This document shows, piece by piece, positions 4,786 through 59,104 of a stretch of DNA of 64,000 nucleotides (its first letter is position 1; each line of letters starts with the position of its first letter). Where the stretch lies: positions 94,330-158,329 of IMG/VR virus record IMGVR_UViG_3300028920_000032. One strand, written 5' to 3'. The notes beneath the pieces were generated by a model. That model was not told where the DNA came from, ran no database searches, and worked only from the letters and a program-made list of their open reading frames with translations. The position numbers and the translations under genes were made by a program. The DNA is from a virus.

Positions 4786-6435
4786 TTATATCTTATAACT
4801 CTCATATACAATTACATTTTTAGGATGTACATATTGTACTGTCCCATCTATTATTAAATATAATATGCTATCATGGTGTACTTTATATAACATACCCAAA
4901 TTTTTATCTGAGGGTGTTGTAAAAAATTCACCATCAGTAGCTATTAATAAAAATGGTACTACAATTGGTACCATATCATTTTTATCTATATTATCTTGTT
5001 TTACAATGGTCTTTTTTTCAGTTTCTTCTTTATCACTTATGGGTTGAAATTGAGTTTTCTTTCCAAATAATTCACTCTGTGTGACAAATTCTAAAACAAT
5101 ATCATCAGCACTCATACCTTTTTCTGTAGGTTGTTTTAAAAGATTTAATAGAGCAAGCTGTGGGCTTTTGTCTTTATTATAAATAAGGTGATCATGCATA
5201 TAATCAAATATACATGTCGGAGTAGTTCCACCGCCTCCTACAACAGCTTCTTCGCCACCTGCATATTTTCGCCAATCGCCAGCTTTATATTCACTAATAC
5301 CAGTTACTTCAGTGTCCCAAGTCATAAAATAAACTTTACCTTTAAATTTTCTTCCACCAGCATTAATTCCAGATTTAAAATTATTCGCTATTTTATCCAT
5401 TTCACTAAATACTTTTTCTATAGTTGTTTTGCCAATAGATCCAGATACATCTAATGCAACTATTAAAACTATTTCACCATATGGAGCTTTTTTAAATGGT
5501 CCTTTAAAAACTATCTTTTGTCCGGGAACATGTGAAGCCGGATGCATTAAGCCAGTAACAAAAGATTTTTCTTTTTGTTTTCCAACACCAGTTTTCATTT
5601 TTTTGCTAGGTAATTTTGAAAATTTGTTTATAGAAGCAGCTGATTTTGATTTGAAGTCTTGTATTTTTTTCTTTAGTTCTTTTAGCCAATCAATTTTTGG
5701 TTCATATAAATTGCGAATTTTATCCATAGCAGATCCTGAACCAAAACCACCAGCTTGACCTTTTTCATTTCTACCATGACGTTCTCTCATGTCTTTTGCT
5801 TTTTCTAGGATGTCTTTTGTAATCTGCTTACTTTCTCCTTTTTGAGATTTGTTTAAAATATCATGTGAATCAAATGTATTGTGCTGACCACCCATTCTCT
5901 GTTCAGCACCTTTGCCTATTTCTTCTTTTGATGGTTGTTTGCCAGTTCCTACTGTTTGTTTTTTACGTTTAATGCTTCCACTTACTTCTTTCCCCTCACC
6001 TTCTTTTCTTTCTTTTCCTTCACCTTCTTTTCCTTCACCTTCTTTTCCTTCACCTTCTTTTCCTTCACCTTCTTTGCCAACTTTTCCAGTGCCACCACAA
6101 GTTGGACATTTTTGTTCTTTACCTTTAGTATCTTCTGTTTTTCCGGTACCTTCACAAGTTGGACATTCTTTTTGTTTAGGAGATAATTCACTAGGTTTAA
6201 CTTTTACTTTTTTATTTTGTTTTTGTTTACCACCACTTTTCGGAGGACCAGTTGAGATAACTTCTATTTCAACAGGTTTGCCATCAATTGGGTCTGGAAG
6301 TGCTGGGATTTCACCTTCACCTGCACCTGCAGGTGGTGTTATATAAACTGGTGTTATTTCATCACGATTAAATGTGATCTCATTACTTTTAGTGGCTTCA
6401 TCTAATTGTTGTAAAAAACTTTTAAAACTACTCAT
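4786..6435 (-). CDS. vWA domain protein with CxxCxGxG zinc finger and GKEGE repeats
   Basis: MIDAS DVSGS, GGGGT, ATDG; CPTCEGTG/CPTCGGTG. Confidence 0.8.
   Translation of the reverse strand: MSSFKSFLQQLDEATKSNEITFNRDEITPVYITPPAGAGEGEIPALPDPIDGKPVEIEVISTGPPKSGGKQKQNKKVKVKPSELSPKQKECPTCEGTGKTEDTKGKEQKCPTCGGTGKVGKEGEGKEGEGKEGEGKEGEGKERKEGEGKEVSGSIKRKKQTVGTGKQPSKEEIGKGAEQRMGGQHNTFDSHDILNKSQKGESKQITKDILEKAKDMRERHGRNEKGQAGGFGSGSAMDKIRNLYEPKIDWLKELKKKIQDFKSKSAASINKFSKLPSKKMKTGVGKQKEKSFVTGLMHPASHVPGQKIVFKGPFKKAPYGEIVLIVALDVSGSIGKTTIEKVFSEMDKIANNFKSGINAGGRKFKGKVYFMTWDTEVTGISEYKAGDWRKYAGGEEAVVGGGGTTPTCIFDYMHDHLIYNKDKSPQLALLNLLKQPTEKGMSADDIVLEFVTQSELFGKKTQFQPISDKEETEKKTIVKQDNIDKNDMVPIVVPFLLIATDGEFFTTPSDKNLGMLYKVHHDSILYLIIDGTVQYVHPKNVIVYESYKI
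5990..6076 (-). repeat. 15-bp coding tandem repeat (GKEGE, about 5 copies)
   Basis: ccttcttttccttca repeated on the + strand. Confidence 0.85.
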
Positions 6436-30479: not shown

Positions 30480-30827
30480 TTATCTCTCTTTTGTATATTC
30501 AATCATTAGGTTTTCTTCTCTCATAGCTTCATCAACCAATCTATCTATTTCACTTTTGTCCATAAGTCTTTTTGCTGTTTCTATCTTTAACCATATTTTA
30601 AATTTTTTATTGTTAACTAATCTTCTAAAAGCATTTTTTAGGTTCTGTTCTCTACTTCTTTCCTCTTGCCCTGTAACTATTATTCCGGTTTCCGAATGTT
30701 TGATTCGACAACAATTTTGATGTTTATTTCTATGTTGACCGCCAGCACCTTTACCGGAAAACCAAGTTATTTTAAGATCTTTTTTGGTTATTGAAAACAA
30801 CAGCTTTTTCATTCTTGTAATCCCCAT
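30480..30827 (-). CDS. Stand-alone GGQ peptide-release-factor domain (ArfB/PrfH-like)
   Basis: GKGAGGQHRNK, HSETGI, ERSREQN. Confidence 0.88.
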   Translation of the reverse strand: MGITRMKKLLFSITKKDLKITWFSGKGAGGQHRNKHQNCCRIKHSETGIIVTGQEERSREQNLKNAFRRLVNNKKFKIWLKIETAKRLMDKSEIDRLVDEAMREENLMIEYTKER

Positions 30828-32086: not shown

Positions 32087-32506
32087 TTATAACAATTTAT
32101 ATTCTTTTGTTAGTTTGTCTATTTTTTCAGAATCATCTGGGCCAATAGCAATACAAGTAGTTGTTCGATTTCCAGCAAATTCTGTAAATCCACTGTCTAC
32201 TATTACAGCATGTGGAATTTTTAAACATTGTGCTTTTTTAGCCAAATCATATATTTCATCTTCACTATCACAAGAGACAACTACTTTAGTAAATCCTTCA
32301 GTAATCCATTTTTGCATTTCATCAGTTGCTGGAAAAATATACCAATCAATATATTGTGAATCTTCATAATCTAAAGTAAGTCTTGACATCCTATCAACAA
32401 ATACTTTCAATGAAGCATGTGCAACTTGAGCTGCTACTTTTCCCTTACGCATGTTGAGATCTTTTCTTACAACAATAACTTGTTTAACTTTTGAAATATT
32501 ATTCAT
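32087..32506 (-). CDS. pth2: Peptidyl-tRNA hydrolase, Pth2 type
   Basis: KQVIVVRKDLNMRKGKVAAQVAHA, KVV, DSGFTE, IGP. Confidence 0.93.
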   Translation of the reverse strand: MNNISKVKQVIVVRKDLNMRKGKVAAQVAHASLKVFVDRMSRLTLDYEDSQYIDWYIFPATDEMQKWITEGFTKVVVSCDSEDEIYDLAKKAQCLKIPHAVIVDSGFTEFAGNRTTTCIAIGPDDSEKIDKLTKEYKLL

Positions 32507-40117: not shown

Positions 40118-40192
40118 TGCCGCCGAGTGGATTCGAACCACCCCCATCTTGGTTCTAAGCCAAGCGACTCCTTCCAGCTGGTCTACGACGGC
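40118..40192 (-). tRNA. tRNA-Leu(TAG), short variable arm
   Basis: GCCGTCG/CGGCGGC, CTTGG-CTTAGAA-CCAAG. Confidence 0.85.
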
Positions 40193-41535
40193 ATATTTTT
40201 TATTAGTTCTGGTTTCCCTAGATAGAAACCTTGAATTGAATCGACACCTATTTGCTCTAGTTTTATTATAGTGTCACTGTCTTCAACAAATTCAGCAACA
40301 GTTATTATATTTAACATATGAGCAATATCATTAATATGTTTAATTATTGCATATGTTATTGGATCATTAATGTCTTTTATAAATGAACCATCAATTTTAA
40401 GAATGTCAACAGGTAGAGTTCTTAAATATGTAAGAGACGACATTCCTTTTCCAAAATCATCTAAAGCAAATTTACAACCGAGATCTCTGATTGCATTTAT
40501 AAATTTAATACAAACAGTTGAATTAGATAATATAACATTCTCAGTTATTTCAAATATTATTTTTTCTGGTGGCACTTTAAATCTTTTTAATTGGTCTGAA
40601 ATAAACTTAACTAGCTGAGGATCAGCAACTGTTTGACCTGAAAGCTTAATTAAAAAATTTATATTATTAATTTTATCATAATTAGCAAATACTTTCATTA
40701 TCACTAAACGATCAATATGAGGCATCAAATTATATTTTTCTGCAAGTGGTATTAACACTGCTGTAGGTATTGAGTCTTTCTTATTGCCCCTAACTAAAAT
40801 TTCAAAACTTCTAAAATTTTTATTATTTAAAGGATATATTTTCTGTGCAAATAGATCAACATCACCTTTTTCAATCATTGTTGAAATTTCAGAAATTTTT
40901 TCAGTGTTTTCTTGCTGTGCTTTAATTATTAAATCATCTTTATTGGGAGATATATGTATACTATTTCCACCAGCATTTTTTGCAATATAACAAGCATTAT
41001 CTGCAGCTATCATTATTTTAGTAAAATCATCTGCATATTTTGGATCTATTGTAGATATCCCTATGCTGGCACTTATATGAAATATTTTCCCATCCCAAAC
41101 AAAATTATAGTTATTGATAGCTTTTAATACTTTCTTTGCTAATTTAGCTGCAATTACTAAATTACAATTTTTTATAATAATTGCAAATTCATCTCCGCCT
41201 AATCTTGCAACAGTATCATCAGATCTTAGACATTTTTTAAATAATTGAGCTACTTGTTTTAAAAGTAGATCACCAGCAGTATGACCACATGAATCATTAA
41301 CTGCTTTAAATTTATCTAAATCAATATAAAATAAATAATGATGTTTGTTATTTTTCTTAGCGTCTAAATATAATTTACTTAATATTTTTTCAAACATTCT
41401 TCTATTATACAGATTTGTTAAATAATCAAATTGTGCATGATATTTTGTTGTATTGTTATTTTTTATAATTATTTTGTATATTCTATATACAAGGAATGAA
41501 AATAAAATAATAGAAGCTATTATCAATTCTGTCAA
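40183..41535 (-). CDS. Membrane-anchored GGDEF-EAL c-di-GMP enzyme
   Basis: DYLTNLYNRR, DLDKFKAVND..GH..GD, RLGGDEF; EIL, FEITE, LDDFG, KIDGSF, AEFVE, QGFY. Confidence 0.93.
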   Translation of the reverse strand: MTELIIASIILFSFLVYRIYKIIIKNNNTTKYHAQFDYLTNLYNRRMFEKILSKLYLDAKKNNKHHYLFYIDLDKFKAVNDSCGHTAGDLLLKQVAQLFKKCLRSDDTVARLGGDEFAIIIKNCNLVIAAKLAKKVLKAINNYNFVWDGKIFHISASIGISTIDPKYADDFTKIMIAADNACYIAKNAGGNSIHISPNKDDLIIKAQQENTEKISEISTMIEKGDVDLFAQKIYPLNNKNFRSFEILVRGNKKDSIPTAVLIPLAEKYNLMPHIDRLVIMKVFANYDKINNINFLIKLSGQTVADPQLVKFISDQLKRFKVPPEKIIFEITENVILSNSTVCIKFINAIRDLGCKFALDDFGKGMSSLTYLRTLPVDILKIDGSFIKDINDPITYAIIKHINDIAHMLNIITVAEFVEDSDTIIKLEQIGVDSIQGFYLGKPELIKNMPS

Positions 41536-41992
41536 CTCTATCTCCCTTCTAGTTCGACATCGCCGAACATAATCGCCGCCTTTTTATCACCACTTTCTTT
41601 TTTTTCACTTTTTGTTTCAACATTCTTATTATGTTTAAGCCAACAATTGTGACATACAAATGTACTTCCTAAAAAATAACCTTTTGTAAATTCTTCTTTA
41701 GCTCCACATAATCCACAAGTTATAAAAGTTGGAATAGGATTAGAATTTGTCATATATTAACACCTCCTAGTAAATTATAAAAGCTTGTCGATTATATTAT
41801 CTAAGATCATCTAAATATTGCTTTCTTTGATGCCATGGTAAACTGAGATATTCTTTCTTAAACTTATAAGCTTCTTGCTTAACAACGTCTGGATTTTCTT
41901 CAATTACTTTAGCATATCGATTAGCAATATACTTTCTTATAACTTTTGAAGCTTTCTTATTCATATATTCTCCTTCCAATTATATGATCAAA

Positions 41993-42063
41993 TATGTCTT
42001 ACAGGATTCGAACCTGTGACTCCAGCCCAATCACCGGCGCTCTAACCGCTAAACCAAAGACAT
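41993..42063 (-). tRNA. tRNA-like gene with aberrant 6-nt anticodon loop (undetermined or pseudo)
   Basis: ATGTCTT/AAGACAT acceptor, intact T arm ACAGG-TTCGAAT-CCTGT, arm CCGGT-GATTGG-GCTGG. Confidence 0.6.
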
Positions 42064-42131
42064 AACCCAATCTAAATGCGCGACAAAGATTGTTTCGCCA
42101 TCAAGCAGTGCGCATTGCTTGTTATAGGCTA

Positions 42132-43631: not shown

Positions 43632-43880
43632 TTAATTTTGTGAATTTTCATATGCATGAATTGGACAGTCCATATCTGTTTTTCCAAGCTTGAAAAAAGT
43701 TTTCATAATACAAAAACGGCATACTGTAATTTCACCTTCATCATTAACTGCTTGCATCATTGCTATTCCTTTTTGTTTGTCACCACATTGACTACATTCG
43801 CAATCACCATGATTATAAAAAAACATAATTTTTGTATTATCATCTTTTCCATTCAAAATAATATTTGGACAATCACACAT
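43632..43880 (-). CDS. Cys-rich hypothetical protein
   Basis: CxC, CxxC motifs. Confidence 0.55.
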   Translation of the reverse strand: MCDCPNIILNGKDDNTKIMFFYNHGDCECSQCGDKQKGIAMMQAVNDEGEITVCRFCIMKTFFKLGKTDMDCPIHAYENSQN

Positions 43881-43893
43881 AACATTTCCTTTC

Positions 43894-44017
43894 TGGAGTA
43901 GGGGAGAGTTGAACTCCCGTCTTCTATCAAAGCAACCTTTTAAGGTACAAGGATTTTCGGATCTAGTGCATTTACGTCATCCTTAGTCTTATCAAGAATC
44001 GAATCCTGAACTACCCC
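43894..44017 (-). ncRNA. ssrA: Miniature tmRNA (124 nt)
   Basis: 5' GGGGTAGTTCAGGATTCGA, 3' GACGGGAGTTCAACTCTCCCCTACTCCA; G3:U70 Ala identity; no D-stem; internal TAAAT-GCA resume context with ORF ALDPKILVP*. Confidence 0.8.
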
Positions 44018-44018
44018 A

Positions 44019-44240
44019 TTAAAATTCTATAGAATCTATAAACAATAAAGCAAATTCAAAACCTGCAACTTGTTTTTTGTCAGACAAAGTTGTTTTTATT
44101 ACTTCAAGATTTTTCTTCAAATTTTCTTTGTCAACATAAATATCATCTTTACGCTTAATAAGATTAAATTTTAAAGATTGTATAATAGCATTAAGCTGAT
44201 CAACATCTTTAATAACTATACTGCTAAGATTTATTTCCAT
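44019..44240 (-). CDS. Hypothetical protein
   Basis: ORF with RBS. Confidence 0.5.
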   Translation of the reverse strand: MEINLSSIVIKDVDQLNAIIQSLKFNLIKRKDDIYVDKENLKKNLEVIKTTLSDKKQVAGFEFALLFIDSIEF

Positions 44241-45689: not shown

Positions 45690-45828
45690 AAGTAAGCAAG
45701 TTAGCGAATAAAGAAAATTTAAACTCTACCAACTGAGCTACCACCAAGCTTTGCTTGATGAGCAGGACTCGAACCTGCGACCTTTTGTTTTTAAGACAAA
45801 CGATAACCTTTATTCAATCAGCTTACTT
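45690..45828 (-). ncRNA. yrlA: YrlA-type Y RNA (circularly permuted tRNA-mimic domain)
   Basis: AAGTAAGC/GCTTACTT stem, TGATT..AGGTTATCG, then TTTGT-CTTAAAA-ACAAA, T arm GCAGG-TTCGAGT-CCTGC, closed acceptor CATCAAGC/GCTTGGTG, D arm TAGCTCAGTTGGTAGAG, AACTTG. Confidence 0.88.
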
Positions 45829-47850: not shown

Positions 47851-47854
47851 AAAA

Positions 47855-48087
47855 AATTATTATTCCAGTAGCCAGGATTCTGTTTTATCCTATCATCTAT
47901 CTCAACATTAAATGCTGGTCTTGCGACTGCTGCCTACCCGATCATTATAGAACTGCTCACCTTCTAGATCTTATTTGGCATTGCACCCTCAGTGGTTCAA
48001 ACGAATAAAAATCCTCCCACTTTAAAAGCAGTGGTGTCCTGAGCTTCCTCTATACTTAAAGTACAGCGATAGGTCAGAATAATAATT
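47855..48087 (-). ncRNA. rnpB: Minimal type-A RNase P RNA (catalytic domain only)
   Basis: P1 AATTATTATTC/GAATAATAATT, P2 CCTATCG/TGATAGG, P3 CTGTAC/GTATAG, GAGGAAGCTCAGGA with ACAGAATCCTGGCT giving P4 with bulged U, P5 CACC/GGTG, P15 GCC/GGC with L15 AAATAA/GGGTA, P16 GATC/GATC, P17 TAGAA/TTCTA, AGATAGATGA. Confidence 0.88.
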
Positions 48088-55224: not shown

Positions 55225-55827
55225 TTATCTTTTAGAGAAGGGCTGCTGAATTATATGTTTTATGTTATTAAATTTTTCTTTTAGATATTTTGTTGTTTTA
55301 TCAATGTCTATATAGGAGAAAGCTGTTGTTCTGATTTCAACATCTAAATTATAAGCGAGAATATATCTCATTGTTTTTTCAAATCGATTTAAGTAATTTT
55401 CAACAGTTAAAGTTTTATGCCCTAATATAGTTTTCACATCGCCTTCAACTAATTTTAAATCTACAGAATATGCATCAACTAATTTATTTTTATTAATTGC
55501 TCTTATTACATCAGGCAGCATTCCATTTGTAAAAATTTTAACTTTAAATGTGGGATATCGTTTTTTTATAAATCTAAGATCTTCAATTAAATTACCACCC
55601 CAAATTGTCGGTTCTCCACCAATAATAACTATCGCTTGATGCATGTCATTTATATTTTTAAATAAAGCTACACGTAAATTATCTGTTATATTTTCATTTT
55701 TAGAAATCTCATTATAATTATAACAATCTTTACAATGTAGATTACAACCATGAACAAAAAGTACTACTGAATGATAAGGTTCATACTCCTGAAATGAATC
55801 TTTAATGACTGATACTATCGGTACCAT
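55225..55827 (-). CDS. nrdG: Anaerobic ribonucleotide reductase activase
   Basis: GCNLHCKDCYN, GGEPT, TNG; overlaps nrdD. Confidence 0.88.
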   Translation of the reverse strand: MVPIVSVIKDSFQEYEPYHSVVLFVHGCNLHCKDCYNYNEISKNENITDNLRVALFKNINDMHQAIVIIGGEPTIWGGNLIEDLRFIKKRYPTFKVKIFTNGMLPDVIRAINKNKLVDAYSVDLKLVEGDVKTILGHKTLTVENYLNRFEKTMRYILAYNLDVEIRTTAFSYIDIDKTTKYLKEKFNNIKHIIQQPFSKR

Positions 55828-58800
55828 TTATCTCCCCTTGTATTTCTAAAGATCCATTTTTATAGAACACTCTAGATGAATATTCAATATCTCGTCTTGT
55901 AGAATTCCACGAATTTACTGGTGTTATAAAACCAACAACACGTGTATATTGTTGAACTATATTAGCTCCACAAATAGAACATTGGTCTTTTTTTCCAATC
56001 ACAAAATGTCTAGCTTTACATTCTGAATAAGCGTAATTAATTGCAAAATAAACTACATTCAAAGATTTTGCTGATATTATCAATCTTTTAAATTGCTCTG
56101 CACTTATTGGTTTCTCATCATCTACATTAATGTGTAAAATTGCTCCACCAGAAGTTAAACTATCAAATTTACCCTGAATTACAAATCTATCATATATTGA
56201 AACATTTTCTATTAAAGGTATATATTGATTAGAATAAAGCTCAAACTTTCTCTCTCGATCTAAGTAAGGTACATCAATTTCTTCATCAATATGATTTCTA
56301 GCTTTTAAGTTATAACCCAATATTTGATCTAAATCAGCTAGTCTTACAGCCATTGATTCACCAGGTATTTGTTCAATATTATATATATTTTTTTCTTCTT
56401 TTTCTTCTTCTTGCCACATTACAATTTTATTTTCAATTTTTTGCAGTACATTAAGTAAAACTTTTTGACCTTTATTAGTTTTTATATCTAAACCACGATT
56501 TTTTATATACTCATAACCACCAATAAATCCTATCGTAGAATATTGTCTAGATAAACGGATCCAATCTGTAGTATATAAAGGGAGAAATCCTCCTTCAATT
56601 CTATCTGTAATCAACCTACGATGGCTATATAAAATTTTATGTAATATTTCTAAATCTTTTTCTATTATATCAGAATCATCTCTTTCAAGTATAGCAAGTC
56701 TTGGTAAATTAAGTCCAGCAACGCGATGAGATCCTATAGATAACCCTCCTACTCCAAAAGAATTATGATATCCCGCATCGGCAACTTTTGAAAAGTCATT
56801 TTTAAGTCGACAACAACTTGAAAAAGAAGTTGGTTTATCTTGAAATATATTAGCCAAAGCTTTTTTGCTATTTATCTCAGCAGCCCAATCAACAAATTCA
56901 GGATCAATATAATTTCTATCTTTGTCAACAGATATTGCTATAGTCATTATAGGGAACGTAAACATCCCTTCTACAGAATTGATATCAGTATAATATTCAA
57001 AAAACAATTTACTTAAATTAAGTACACTATCAATATTTGGTCTAGTGAAATCTGGATATATATAGTCACCGAATAAAGATTTCATAAAACCACTATCCAT
57101 TACAGAAATATTAGTAAAAGCACTCTGTGAACCTCTAAATGGAAAATTCATTGAATATATAAAATTTTGAAATTGGTTTTTGATTCTTTCCCACACTTTA
57201 TATTCTTCACTATCTTTATTGTTTTTACCAATTCTCATAATAGTTGAATAATCTTCGCTAAACTCTTTTCTATAATACCAATCTAAAACTACGAAAAAAT
57301 CAGGATAAGAAGCAGCACCCATTATTTGATTTGAAATATAAGCAGTAGTTTGTATTATTAAAGCTATAAAAGAATCAGATCTTTTTGGTGCACTAATATT
57401 CATATTACCACTAAAGAAATCCATACCTTTTGTTATTAAATTTCTTAGATCAAAAGCATAGCAATTATGTTGAATCATACCACCAGAATAAAATGTATTT
57501 GTTTCAGTTGTAATATCATACACATATTCTAATACATTATTTCCATAATTATTTATTTTGCTCTTAGAATCAATTTTAAAAATTTTACATACTTTATTTG
57601 ATCTTAAAATAGACGCCATTTTTGTTTTTATGTTAAAGTTAGTAATCTTATGCTTAACTTTCTCTGAATAGTTAGCAAAATCAATAGTTGGATTAAAACT
57701 TATGCCAAATAAGAAGTTAAAATTTTTATTATTACAAAGCCTTTTATGTGATTCAATTCCTATTGAAGTTAATACTTCACTAAGCTGTGTAATTAGAGCA
57801 TATGCTTTCATTCTTATGTCAACTATCCTACTATGATTTGTTGTCCCATCACTATCAATAAGACCGGAGATTAAAGCCACCTTGCTTTCTTTTTTCCAAT
57901 TTAATATATTACTTGGCAATTTCTTTAAAAATGAGTTATCTATTTCATTTAAATCAAAATATTCTTTAAGTAAAAGATTTAATTTTAGCGAAGAAAAATA
58001 TAACATATCTCTATTTCTTCTTATATTAAAACGTAGCTTAGGGAAAAACTTTTTAAGTTTGCAAAATATTTTTGTTTCTTCAATATTTTTTTGATATATA
58101 GATATTTTGTTTGATTGTCTTGAAATATTAATACATGTATCATCTTTTTCAAATTTGCTATTATAAAATTTATGTCTTGATATACTACCATCACCAAGTA
58201 AAAAACCTACTATATAAGCTAAATCTTCTGGTACATTAATACTTTCTTTAAATTTAAAATTGAGTTTTTCCTCTTTTATCCTATCTCCAATATTTAAGTT
58301 ATGAGCAACAATTTGTGTACCATTTTCTGATATTATAGGATGATTATCTGTAACTAAACTAAAGTTTCCATTCTCTGTTTGATAAAAAATTAAACCCCTA
58401 TCATTTTTGTGTCTTAAAACAGCTGTTAATGAGACCCATTGCATGTTTTGATCTAAAATTTTTATATTTTGTTTTTCTTCCACATTTTGCAAAAATACAT
58501 CTTGTTTAAACGTCTTAAGTTTTCTACCATTTAGCTTAAACCCCACTTGATTTAAACTAACATCTTTGTATATATTAGTTAAATCTATAGTTTCTCTATC
58601 ATTTAATATTTCCTTATGCTCTGAAAATAAATTGAATAACTGTTTCATTGTTAAATATTTTATTTTACCATTAATCTTGACAATAATTGGTGTCTCTTGA
58701 TAGTATGAGTAAGGCATTGAAAAATTTGTTAGATCGTTTATAAATATTTCCCCACTGATAACTTTCTCTAACACTTCTTGTGCATCTTCCAATGAAAATA

Positions 58801-59104
58801 TTTTTTTTACATACTTATAAAGTAAATAAAGTGAGTTTAATTTCATTAGCGCTTTATTATTTTCATAATTATATTGTGAAATATTTTTTTCTTTAACATT
58901 AGCATTACTGTCAACACTAAGATCAGCAACATTACTACTTTTTTCAAAAAAATTTCTAGAAAATTGTACAAGATCCATATGTCTATTCGCAATTCCTTGA
59001 ATTTCAAATACACTCTCACCGTATTTTTTATATAACTCAGTCATAAAATCTACAAAATCATTCGGATAACTTTGTTTAATATACCAACCTTTAGAACGCT
59101 CCAT
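55802..59104 (-). CDS. nrdD: Class III ribonucleotide reductase with intein
   Basis: FTFP, SCCRL, EQIPGES, SGGAI.H, TRVVGF glycyl-radical motif. Confidence 0.93.
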   Translation of the reverse strand: MERSKGWYIKQSYPNDFVDFMTELYKKYGESVFEIQGIANRHMDLVQFSRNFFEKSSNVADLSVDSNANVKEKNISQYNYENNKALMKLNSLYLLYKYVKKIFSLEDAQEVLEKVISGEIFINDLTNFSMPYSYYQETPIIVKINGKIKYLTMKQLFNLFSEHKEILNDRETIDLTNIYKDVSLNQVGFKLNGRKLKTFKQDVFLQNVEEKQNIKILDQNMQWVSLTAVLRHKNDRGLIFYQTENGNFSLVTDNHPIISENGTQIVAHNLNIGDRIKEEKLNFKFKESINVPEDLAYIVGFLLGDGSISRHKFYNSKFEKDDTCINISRQSNKISIYQKNIEETKIFCKLKKFFPKLRFNIRRNRDMLYFSSLKLNLLLKEYFDLNEIDNSFLKKLPSNILNWKKESKVALISGLIDSDGTTNHSRIVDIRMKAYALITQLSEVLTSIGIESHKRLCNNKNFNFLFGISFNPTIDFANYSEKVKHKITNFNIKTKMASILRSNKVCKIFKIDSKSKINNYGNNVLEYVYDITTETNTFYSGGMIQHNCYAFDLRNLITKGMDFFSGNMNISAPKRSDSFIALIIQTTAYISNQIMGAASYPDFFVVLDWYYRKEFSEDYSTIMRIGKNNKDSEEYKVWERIKNQFQNFIYSMNFPFRGSQSAFTNISVMDSGFMKSLFGDYIYPDFTRPNIDSVLNLSKLFFEYYTDINSVEGMFTFPIMTIAISVDKDRNYIDPEFVDWAAEINSKKALANIFQDKPTSFSSCCRLKNDFSKVADAGYHNSFGVGGLSIGSHRVAGLNLPRLAILERDDSDIIEKDLEILHKILYSHRRLITDRIEGGFLPLYTTDWIRLSRQYSTIGFIGGYEYIKNRGLDIKTNKGQKVLLNVLQKIENKIVMWQEEEKEEKNIYNIEQIPGESMAVRLADLDQILGYNLKARNHIDEEIDVPYLDRERKFELYSNQYIPLIENVSIYDRFVIQGKFDSLTSGGAILHINVDDEKPISAEQFKRLIISAKSLNVVYFAINYAYSECKARHFVIGKKDQCSICGANIVQQYTRVVGFITPVNSWNSTRRDIEYSSRVFYKNGSLEIQGEINGTDSISH
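57464..58708 (-). mobile_element. 415-aa LAGLIDADG intein in NrdD, Ser1 type
   Basis: MPY|SYYQETP...VYDITT...IQHN|CYAFD; LAYIVGFLLGDG and ISGLIDSDG motifs. Confidence 0.9.

Follow-up and report, generated by a model that had tools for sequence, protein, structure and literature searches.

A 124-nt gene on the minus strand of a virus contig was found to specify a miniature homolog of tmRNA (referred to below as the mini-tmRNA), and the sequence supports its identification as a tmRNA homolog in which the alanine identity is intact and the ring of pseudoknots is lacking. To the explanation that we prefer, namely that this is a functional phage gene for a mini-tmRNA which carries no degradation tag and competes with the host tmRNA, we assign a probability of about one half. 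The comparisons presented below suggest a phage tmRNA mimic of the type found in Mycobacterium phage DS6A, combined with a restart-like signal, in a phage having its own rescue-related genes. The window, that is, the whole stretch of DNA that was analyzed, covers the 64 kb at the end of a 158-kb virus contig from IMG/VR, estimated with CheckV to be approximately 70% complete, and the phage is AT-rich and tRNA-rich. The coordinates of the RNA, its parts and the genes related to it are listed in Table 1.

Table 1. Mini-tmRNA, its parts and associated genes in window coordinates (nucleotide n of the RNA corresponds to window position 44018 - n, G1 being 44017).
Feature	Window position	Strand	Basis
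Mini-tmRNA gene, G1 to discriminator A124	43894..44017	-	Rfam RF00023, 44.8 bits, E 1.3e-16; sequence
Acceptor stem, 5' strand GGGGUAG, nt 1-7, holding G3 of G3:U70	44011..44017	-	Seven standard or G-U pairs with nt 117-123
GGAUUCGA, tmRNA D-loop analogue, nt 12-19, no D-stem	43999..44006	-	Aligned to the invariant GGAUUCGA of RF00023, high posterior
Putative P2, 5' strand UUCUUGAUAAG, nt 20-30, weak	43988..43998	-	4 + 3 Watson-Crick pairs possible with nt 86-96
Hairpin A, AAGGAU (nt 34-39) with AUCCUU (nt 64-69), 24-nt loop containing the restart context	43949..43984	-	Predicted
Restart-like context UAAAU, nt 44-48, directly 5' of GCA	43970..43974	-	Fits U(-5) A(-4) R(-3) N(-2) Y(-1), PMC2481249
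Candidate tag frame GCA..CCU UAA, nt 49-78, ALDPKILVP-stop	43940..43969	-	Sequence
Hairpin B, ACCU/AGGU (nt 72-75/80-83), UAA stop in UAAA loop	43935..43946	-	Predicted
Putative P2, 3' strand CUUUGAUAGAA, nt 86-96, weak	43922..43932	-	Pairing with nt 20-30
T-arm GGGAG-UUCAACU-CUCCC, nt 100-116	43902..43918	-	Five pairs; RF00023 T-arm alignment, posterior near 1
Acceptor stem, 3' strand CUACUCC, and discriminator A, nt 117-124	43894..43901	-	Sequence and RF00023 alignment
Upstream 73-aa ORF, stop codon ending 1 nt before G1	44019..44240	-	ORF
Downstream 82-aa Cys-rich ORF, Shine-Dalgarno AGGAAA a few bases 3' of the RNA	43632..43880	-	ORF
Reduced class-A RNase P RNA, 233 nt	47853..48085	-	RF00010, 68.9 bits (gathering score 100), E 6e-21, model 1-367
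GGQ protein, 115 aa, RF-1 domain only	30480..30827	-	PF00472, 64 bits; GGQ motif in translation
Pth2-type peptidyl-tRNA hydrolase	32087..32506	-	PF01981, 120 bits; TIGR00283, 109 bits (above cut-off of 82)

The tRNA-like domain (TLD) of the mini-tmRNA is complete. Its acceptor stem consists of seven base pairs between GGGGUAG and CUACUCC, including the G3:U70 pair, and A124 corresponds to position 73 of a tRNA; the 12 stem pairs of the domain are all either standard or required G-U pairs, and the invariant motifs are intact. The first-pass annotation had described both ends as matching the TLD of tmRNA (G3:U70, A73, no D-stem), and each of these features was recovered on the minus strand where it had been placed. 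With the tmRNA tools that it had proposed as a check the outcome was mixed: RF00023 (tmRNA) matched with the score given in Table 1 in a search of 551 nt, and with an E-value of 9e-18 when the whole contig was searched, whereas this score lies about 2 bits under the Rfam gathering score of 47 bits and ARAGORN made no call for the element in the 64-kb window. The alignment obtained with cmscan runs from end to end (model positions 1-374), with 280 internal model positions deleted, and the match is far beyond chance. The identity elements are present for alanylation by AlaRS and for the binding of SmpB, both of which are putative properties of this RNA; G3:U70 also occurs in the tRNA-Ala of the phage. 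The gene does not encode CCA, A124 being directly followed by AGAA.

An origin as an attP-type fragment of a host tmRNA gene was rejected, since the element has both halves, perfectly paired; in viral contigs, 113 of 120 matches to the 3' TLD motif lack any 5' half and correspond to these familiar fragments. This 3' motif is common to many phyla and gives no lead to the host. No second tmRNA was found in the contig (approximately 70% complete), the weaker RF00023 matches being those of tRNA-Ala and tRNA-Ile. On the plus strand, an ORF at 43656-43901 was judged to be spurious: it is antisense to the 82-aa gene and shares 8 nt with the RNA.

The "TLD only" (CDS-less) tmRNA of Mycobacterium phage DS6A (JN698994, 28478-28560; Hudson, Lau & Williams 2014, PMC4131195; PMC11915505) scored 43.2 bits against RF00023 in the same test, which is also under the gathering score; since the two scores are level (44.8 vs. 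43.2 bits), the mini-tmRNA is as good a homolog as this accepted precedent. Both are phage-encoded and have an intact alanine-type TLD and no pseudoknots. They differ in that the DS6A RNA measures 83 nt in all, with some 20 nt separating the two sides of its closing helix, whereas the 77-nt body of the mini-tmRNA accommodates two hairpins, a terminated frame of 9 codons and a restart-like sequence before it, which makes the RNA more than a bare TLD; the AT-rich, tRNA-rich phage and the CCA missing from the gene are further differences. According to the account of Mao et al. (2009) given in PMC4131195 and PMC11915505, a DS6A-like molecule strongly inhibited tmRNA, perhaps by titrating SmpB.

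Standard one-piece tmRNAs (SsrA, RF00023), including the full-length copies in phage G and in the Bxz1-like mycobacteriophages, share with the mini-tmRNA the TLD motifs, a UARNY-GCN sequence and, as predicted for the latter, the location of the stop codon in a hairpin loop. The mini-tmRNA differs from them in being one third of their length, in lacking PK1-PK4 and the hydrophobic ALAA-type end of the tag, in having a weak P2, and in falling under the Rfam gathering score and being missed by ARAGORN. The CDS-less organellar tmRNAs (those of jakobid and oomycete mitochondria, and the plastid forms of about 65 bp in Mallomonadaceae; PMC11915505, PMC4131195) are likewise reduced to the TLD, and are thought still to help with incomplete mRNAs, adding no tag (PMC11915505, PMC4131195); they differ in being organellar rather than viral, in co-occurring with imported SmpB and in being even shorter.

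The body, consisting of the 77 nt between GGAUUCGA and GACG, leaves no room for pseudoknots, as the first-pass annotation had pointed out with regard to PK2-PK4: PK1-PK4 are all absent, in line with the 280 deleted model positions, and the body folds into at most two short hairpins. The putative helix P2 is made up of UUCU/AGAA and AAG/CUU pairings around a symmetric UGAU/UGAU loop, in which U-U, G-A, A-G and U-U pairs could form; the pair probability obtained with ViennaRNA was only 0.01, and the alignment to the Rfam model has a low posterior here. When the TLD was constrained to its known fold, the pair probabilities ranged from 0.84 to 0.89 in hairpin A and from 0.63 to 0.78 in hairpin B, the restart region was predicted to be mostly unpaired, and the UAA codon was placed in the loop of hairpin B. 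This hairpin resembles helix 5 of tmRNAs, which carries stop codons in its loop. The stability of the body is not above that of shuffled sequences (z +0.64), whereas z is near -2 in the bodies of three other mini-tmRNAs described below (L007, L012 and L020). No similarity was found by BLAST between the body and any of about 400 fetched loci.

In natural tmRNAs, U(-5) and A(-4) are highly conserved, position -3 is occupied by a purine and position -1 by a pyrimidine, and the choice of the frame is determined mainly by A(-4) (PMC2481249). RNA nt 44-78 read UAAAU-GCA CUA GAU CCG AAA AUC CUU GUA CCU UAA, where the stop codon occupies nt 76-78, and the pentamer (U44 A45 A46 A47 U48) agrees with this consensus throughout, in five positions of five, the near-invariant A(-4) among them. 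The first-pass annotation had read TAAAT-GCA as a typical resume context, which the consensus bears out, and had placed a frame GCA..CCT TAA at 43940-43969, which is present. Its overall proposal, a miniature tmRNA with the tag (A)ALDPKILVP, is supported as regards the miniature tmRNA homolog but not as regards the tag, since dinucleotide shuffling of the body produces a terminated frame of at least 9 codons starting with GCN in 29% of cases; the ALDPKILVP frame on its own is within chance (not significant). Among 20,000 shuffles, 1.9% had the restart context followed by a terminated frame of 4-30 codons (7.5% if Gly or Asp restart codons are also allowed); this statistic was defined after the sequence had been seen, and the combination of context and frame is suggestive only.

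The candidate frame ends in ...ILVP, with no hydrophobic ALAA-type proteolysis signal, and its last codon gives a Pro-UAA end. Pro-UAA is a poor termination context and is in itself a cause of stalling and SsrA tagging in E. coli. The distance from the D-loop analogue to the restart codon is only 29 nt, with no PK1; the Pro-UAA end, the missing ALAA-type end and the missing PK1 speak against a working tag. These features weigh on the alternative that the RNA is a true minimal tmRNA which completes trans-translation, taking over the nascent chain on its alanine, resuming at GCA (nt 49), adding ALDPKILVP and ending at UAA, so that phage proteins would be released with a harmless non-degron tail. 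This reading, which we consider a possible but distinctly less probable one than competition, is favored by the five-position fit of UAAAU and the rarity of context plus frame among the shuffles, by the predicted accessibility of the restart region and the stop codon in a hairpin loop, by the fact that E. coli tmRNA remains active when unrelated sequence is put in place of its pseudoknots (PMC2481249), and by the existence of natural tags of only 2 aa (PMC11915505). In addition to the Pro-UAA end and the short, PK1-less approach to the restart codon, the frequency of the frame alone in the shuffles and the choice of the test statistic after the sequence had been seen count against it, as do the frames of the other mini-tmRNAs, which differ from this one and have no ALAA-type tail, and in two of which a shared motif is shifted in frame by an indel.

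DNA pattern scans of viral-contig, metagenome and genome collections yielded no relative of the element, the matches being mostly tandem tRNAs, internal GGATTCGA motifs of full-length tmRNAs, or chance. ThyX had no match in viral contigs, and the 82-aa neighbor protein had no homolog among 5.8 billion protein clusters. ThyX (77% identity) and a 141-aa neighbor (84%) have one relative, on a single Logan contig of 13,972 bp (run SRR13394437), which shows the same gene order and, upstream of an 81-aa gene, a gene-free gap of 1.1 kb where the tRNAs and the mini-tmRNA would lie.

Three other mini-tmRNAs were found, in a viral contig (L007:1727-1851, 125 nt, RF00023 70.6 bits), in a complete 356-kb phage (L012:2214-2353, 140 nt, 55.7 bits) and in a metagenome (L020, 123 nt). 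They are independent of the present element, and mini-tmRNAs recur in unrelated phages (L007, L012). All three resemble the element in their size class, their TLD and their pseudoknot-free bodies of 75-91 nt. They differ from it in that their bodies are richer in GC, have a strong 10-bp P2, fold better than shuffles, and have no sequence in common with its body. The UARNY-GCN context is also absent from them, as well as from L047 (see below); UAGGC-GAA can be seen by eye in L007. The candidate frames of these other RNAs vary in length and sequence, and an ALAA-type tail is missing from all of them. The RNA motif GGCGAAAA(A)GGCCC is common to L007 and L020, where it falls in different frames on account of a 1-nt indel, so that in this pair the constraint would seem to act at the RNA level rather than at the peptide level. 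The L012 phage has a Pth2 gene, and no SmpB or RF-1-domain protein was found in its 356-kb genome; there are no ORF-tRNA overlaps at the L012 locus. A 132-nt tmRNA of enterobacterial type with an E. coli-like TLD was also observed on a 100-kb metagenome contig (L047, PPYE01046245.1, approximately 6100-6230, plus strand), from which the tag and PK2-PK4 are cleanly deleted, the deletion extending from just after the first stem of PK1 to the 3' strand of P2.

All 31 tRNA genes of the window are on the minus strand, and none of them encodes CCA (0/31). The mini-tmRNA is packed in the same way as the tRNAs, with 1 nt between it and the stop codon of the 73-aa ORF and 13 nt between it and the start codon that follows. 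Six minus-strand ORFs extend into the tRNA gene that follows on the same strand and have their stop codon within it: the ORFs ending at window 34326, 40183, 47264, 50687, 52567 and 17967 overlap by 15, 11, 25, 20, 10 and 1 nt with genes for tRNA-Gly, Leu, Ile, Gln and Thr and, in the case of the single base, Arg. Three of the six are Pfam-backed (Pyr_excise, GGDEF-EAL and HNH), and in another 10 ORFs the distance from the end of the ORF to the t(m)RNA gene that follows is 0-9 nt. In 2031 bacterial genomes, an upstream CDS on the same strand was found to overlap only 250 of 115,660 t(m)RNA genes, and such overlaps have been proposed as sources of non-stop mRNAs (PMC4131195). In the present phage, 5' processing of the tRNAs would strip the stop codon from the mRNAs of the six overlapping ORFs. 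The GGDEF-EAL (c-di-GMP) gene lies inside the tRNA array (window 40183-41535, minus strand), its last 11 nt overlapping tRNA-Leu. Elsewhere on the minus strand, ARAGORN reported a tRNA with an undetermined two-base anticodon at 41992-42064, and Rfam gave a 64-nt tRNA-like match (37.4 bits) at 45754-45817, where ARAGORN made no call.

Several other genes of the phage are related to RNA processing and to the release of peptides. The phage encodes a miniaturized RNase P RNA, which is unusual, and a CCA-adding enzyme (439-aa frame; PF01743, 132 bits) located outside the window at G000:C1:81118-81474. The 115-aa GGQ protein is ArfB-, PrfH- or ICT1-like, and its gene is on the same strand as that of Pth2, at a distance of 1.3 kb, with a radical-SAM gene between them. 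RtcB is the partner of PrfH-type GGQ proteins; no RtcB, SmpB or AlaRS was found in the 158-kb contig, and since the latter is approximately 70% complete, the remainder of the genome could still carry SmpB or a full-length tmRNA. The window also carries a gene for an anaerobic ribonucleotide reductase, NrdD (1100 aa, 55802-59104, minus strand), with an internal LAGLIDADG domain which may be an intein or an endonuclease insertion; the presence of NrdD suggests an anaerobic host.

From the anatomy of the RNA, its homology and the gene content of the phage, we infer the following course of events as regards processing, charging, SmpB binding, competition and the link with stop-less mRNAs. The mini-tmRNA would be excised, like the neighboring tRNAs, from a long minus-strand tRNA/ORF transcript, the phage having a reduced RNase P RNA of its own; CCA would be added by the phage CCA-adding enzyme, and the AlaRS of the host would charge the RNA with alanine via G3:U70 and A73. 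As neither SmpB nor AlaRS was found in the contig, those of the host would have to be used, and host SmpB and EF-Tu would bind the charged RNA, which would then occupy SmpB, or the A site of ribosomes that have stalled at the 3' end of a phage mRNA, or both. Stalls of this kind should be frequent because the ORFs abut or run into tRNA genes, and the 5' processing of the tRNAs should yield upstream mRNAs whose 3' ends lie at the stop codon or before it. The stalled ribosomes would be substrates of the host tmRNA-SmpB, by which phage proteins would be tagged for proteolysis, whereas a mini-tmRNA with no ClpXP-type degron would not mark them in this way; the release of the peptide would be left to the phage GGQ protein and Pth2, or to host factors. 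The blocking might follow any of three routes: abundant charged mini-tmRNA might soak up SmpB, as proposed for the DS6A-type RNA (PMC4131195); the mini-tmRNA might accept the peptide, after which Pth2 would hydrolyze the peptidyl-RNA; or translation might resume on the short frame of the mini-tmRNA itself.

Competition with the host tmRNA is the reading to which a complete and tmRNA-specific TLD, the lack of pseudoknots and a frame with no ALAA-type end all point. The gene content is consistent with it as well (CCA-less tRNA genes along with a CCA-adding enzyme, the RNase P RNA, the six ORF-tRNA overlaps, and the GGQ protein with Pth2), and so are the independent mini-tmRNAs of L007 and L012, the L012 phage likewise having Pth2 without SmpB. 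Arguing against it are the weakness of P2 (probability 0.01) and a body that is no more stable than its shuffles. A pure decoy, moreover, would not need UAAAU-GCA, which points toward a real resumption of translation, and the co-occurrence with Pth2 rests on two genomes, the ORF-tRNA overlaps being absent at the L012 locus. The first-pass annotation had offered a rescue RNA with no standard degron and an SmpB decoy as its two alternatives, and these are the two readings that come out on top on the evidence.

The element might also be the decaying relic of a full-length phage tmRNA that underwent a large internal deletion, or a tRNA-shaped signal for cutting by RNase P/Z between ORFs, with no role in rescue. 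Deletion derivatives such as L047 do arise, the body is unstructured and similar to none of the fetched loci, and the element sits exactly between two ORFs (1-nt and 13-nt spacing), as tRNAs do. We regard this explanation as improbable: the TLD pairs and invariant motifs are all intact, with 12 of 12 stem pairs, the tmRNA-specific GGAUUCGA and G3:U70 would be needless for mere cutting, and mini-tmRNAs recur in unrelated phages. The stability and location of RNase R depend on tmRNA-SmpB. That the RNA is a t(m)RNA-shaped decoy for a target other than SmpB, such as a host defence nuclease cleaving tRNA or tmRNA, or RNase R, is highly improbable, given that no such partner is indicated in the locus and that the features retained are those read by AlaRS, EF-Tu and SmpB, even though a staphylococcal phage protein acts on RNase R and Cas10-Csm through t(m)RNA fragments (PMC11662646) and the large tRNA set of the phage would fit pressure from host defences that target tRNAs.

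A bolder claim, which we regard as doubtful, would be that this is a natural 124-nt tmRNA performing full trans-translation with no pseudoknot and with a non-degron tail, as part of a module comprising the miniature RNase P RNA, the CCA-adding enzyme, the GGQ protein and Pth2. If this were the case, the phage would cut its mRNAs at tRNA genes, lose stop codons and still release intact proteins. As regards tag-less phage tmRNAs in general, the literature describes a single case, that of DS6A, and since such RNAs are missed by the standard tools, both by ARAGORN and at the Rfam gathering score, they are undercounted in surveys of phages. What is new here is that the body keeps a restart-like signal, which makes it a natural test of the smallest working tmRNA, and that the genomic setting shows in concrete terms what a phage might gain from such an RNA. 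In a phage whose genes run into tRNA genes and which itself supplies an RNase P RNA, mRNAs lacking a stop codon should be common, and tagging by the host would destroy the phage proteins unless it were blocked or replaced by tag-free release through the GGQ protein and Pth2. If true, large phages would regularly control ribosome rescue when taking over the host.
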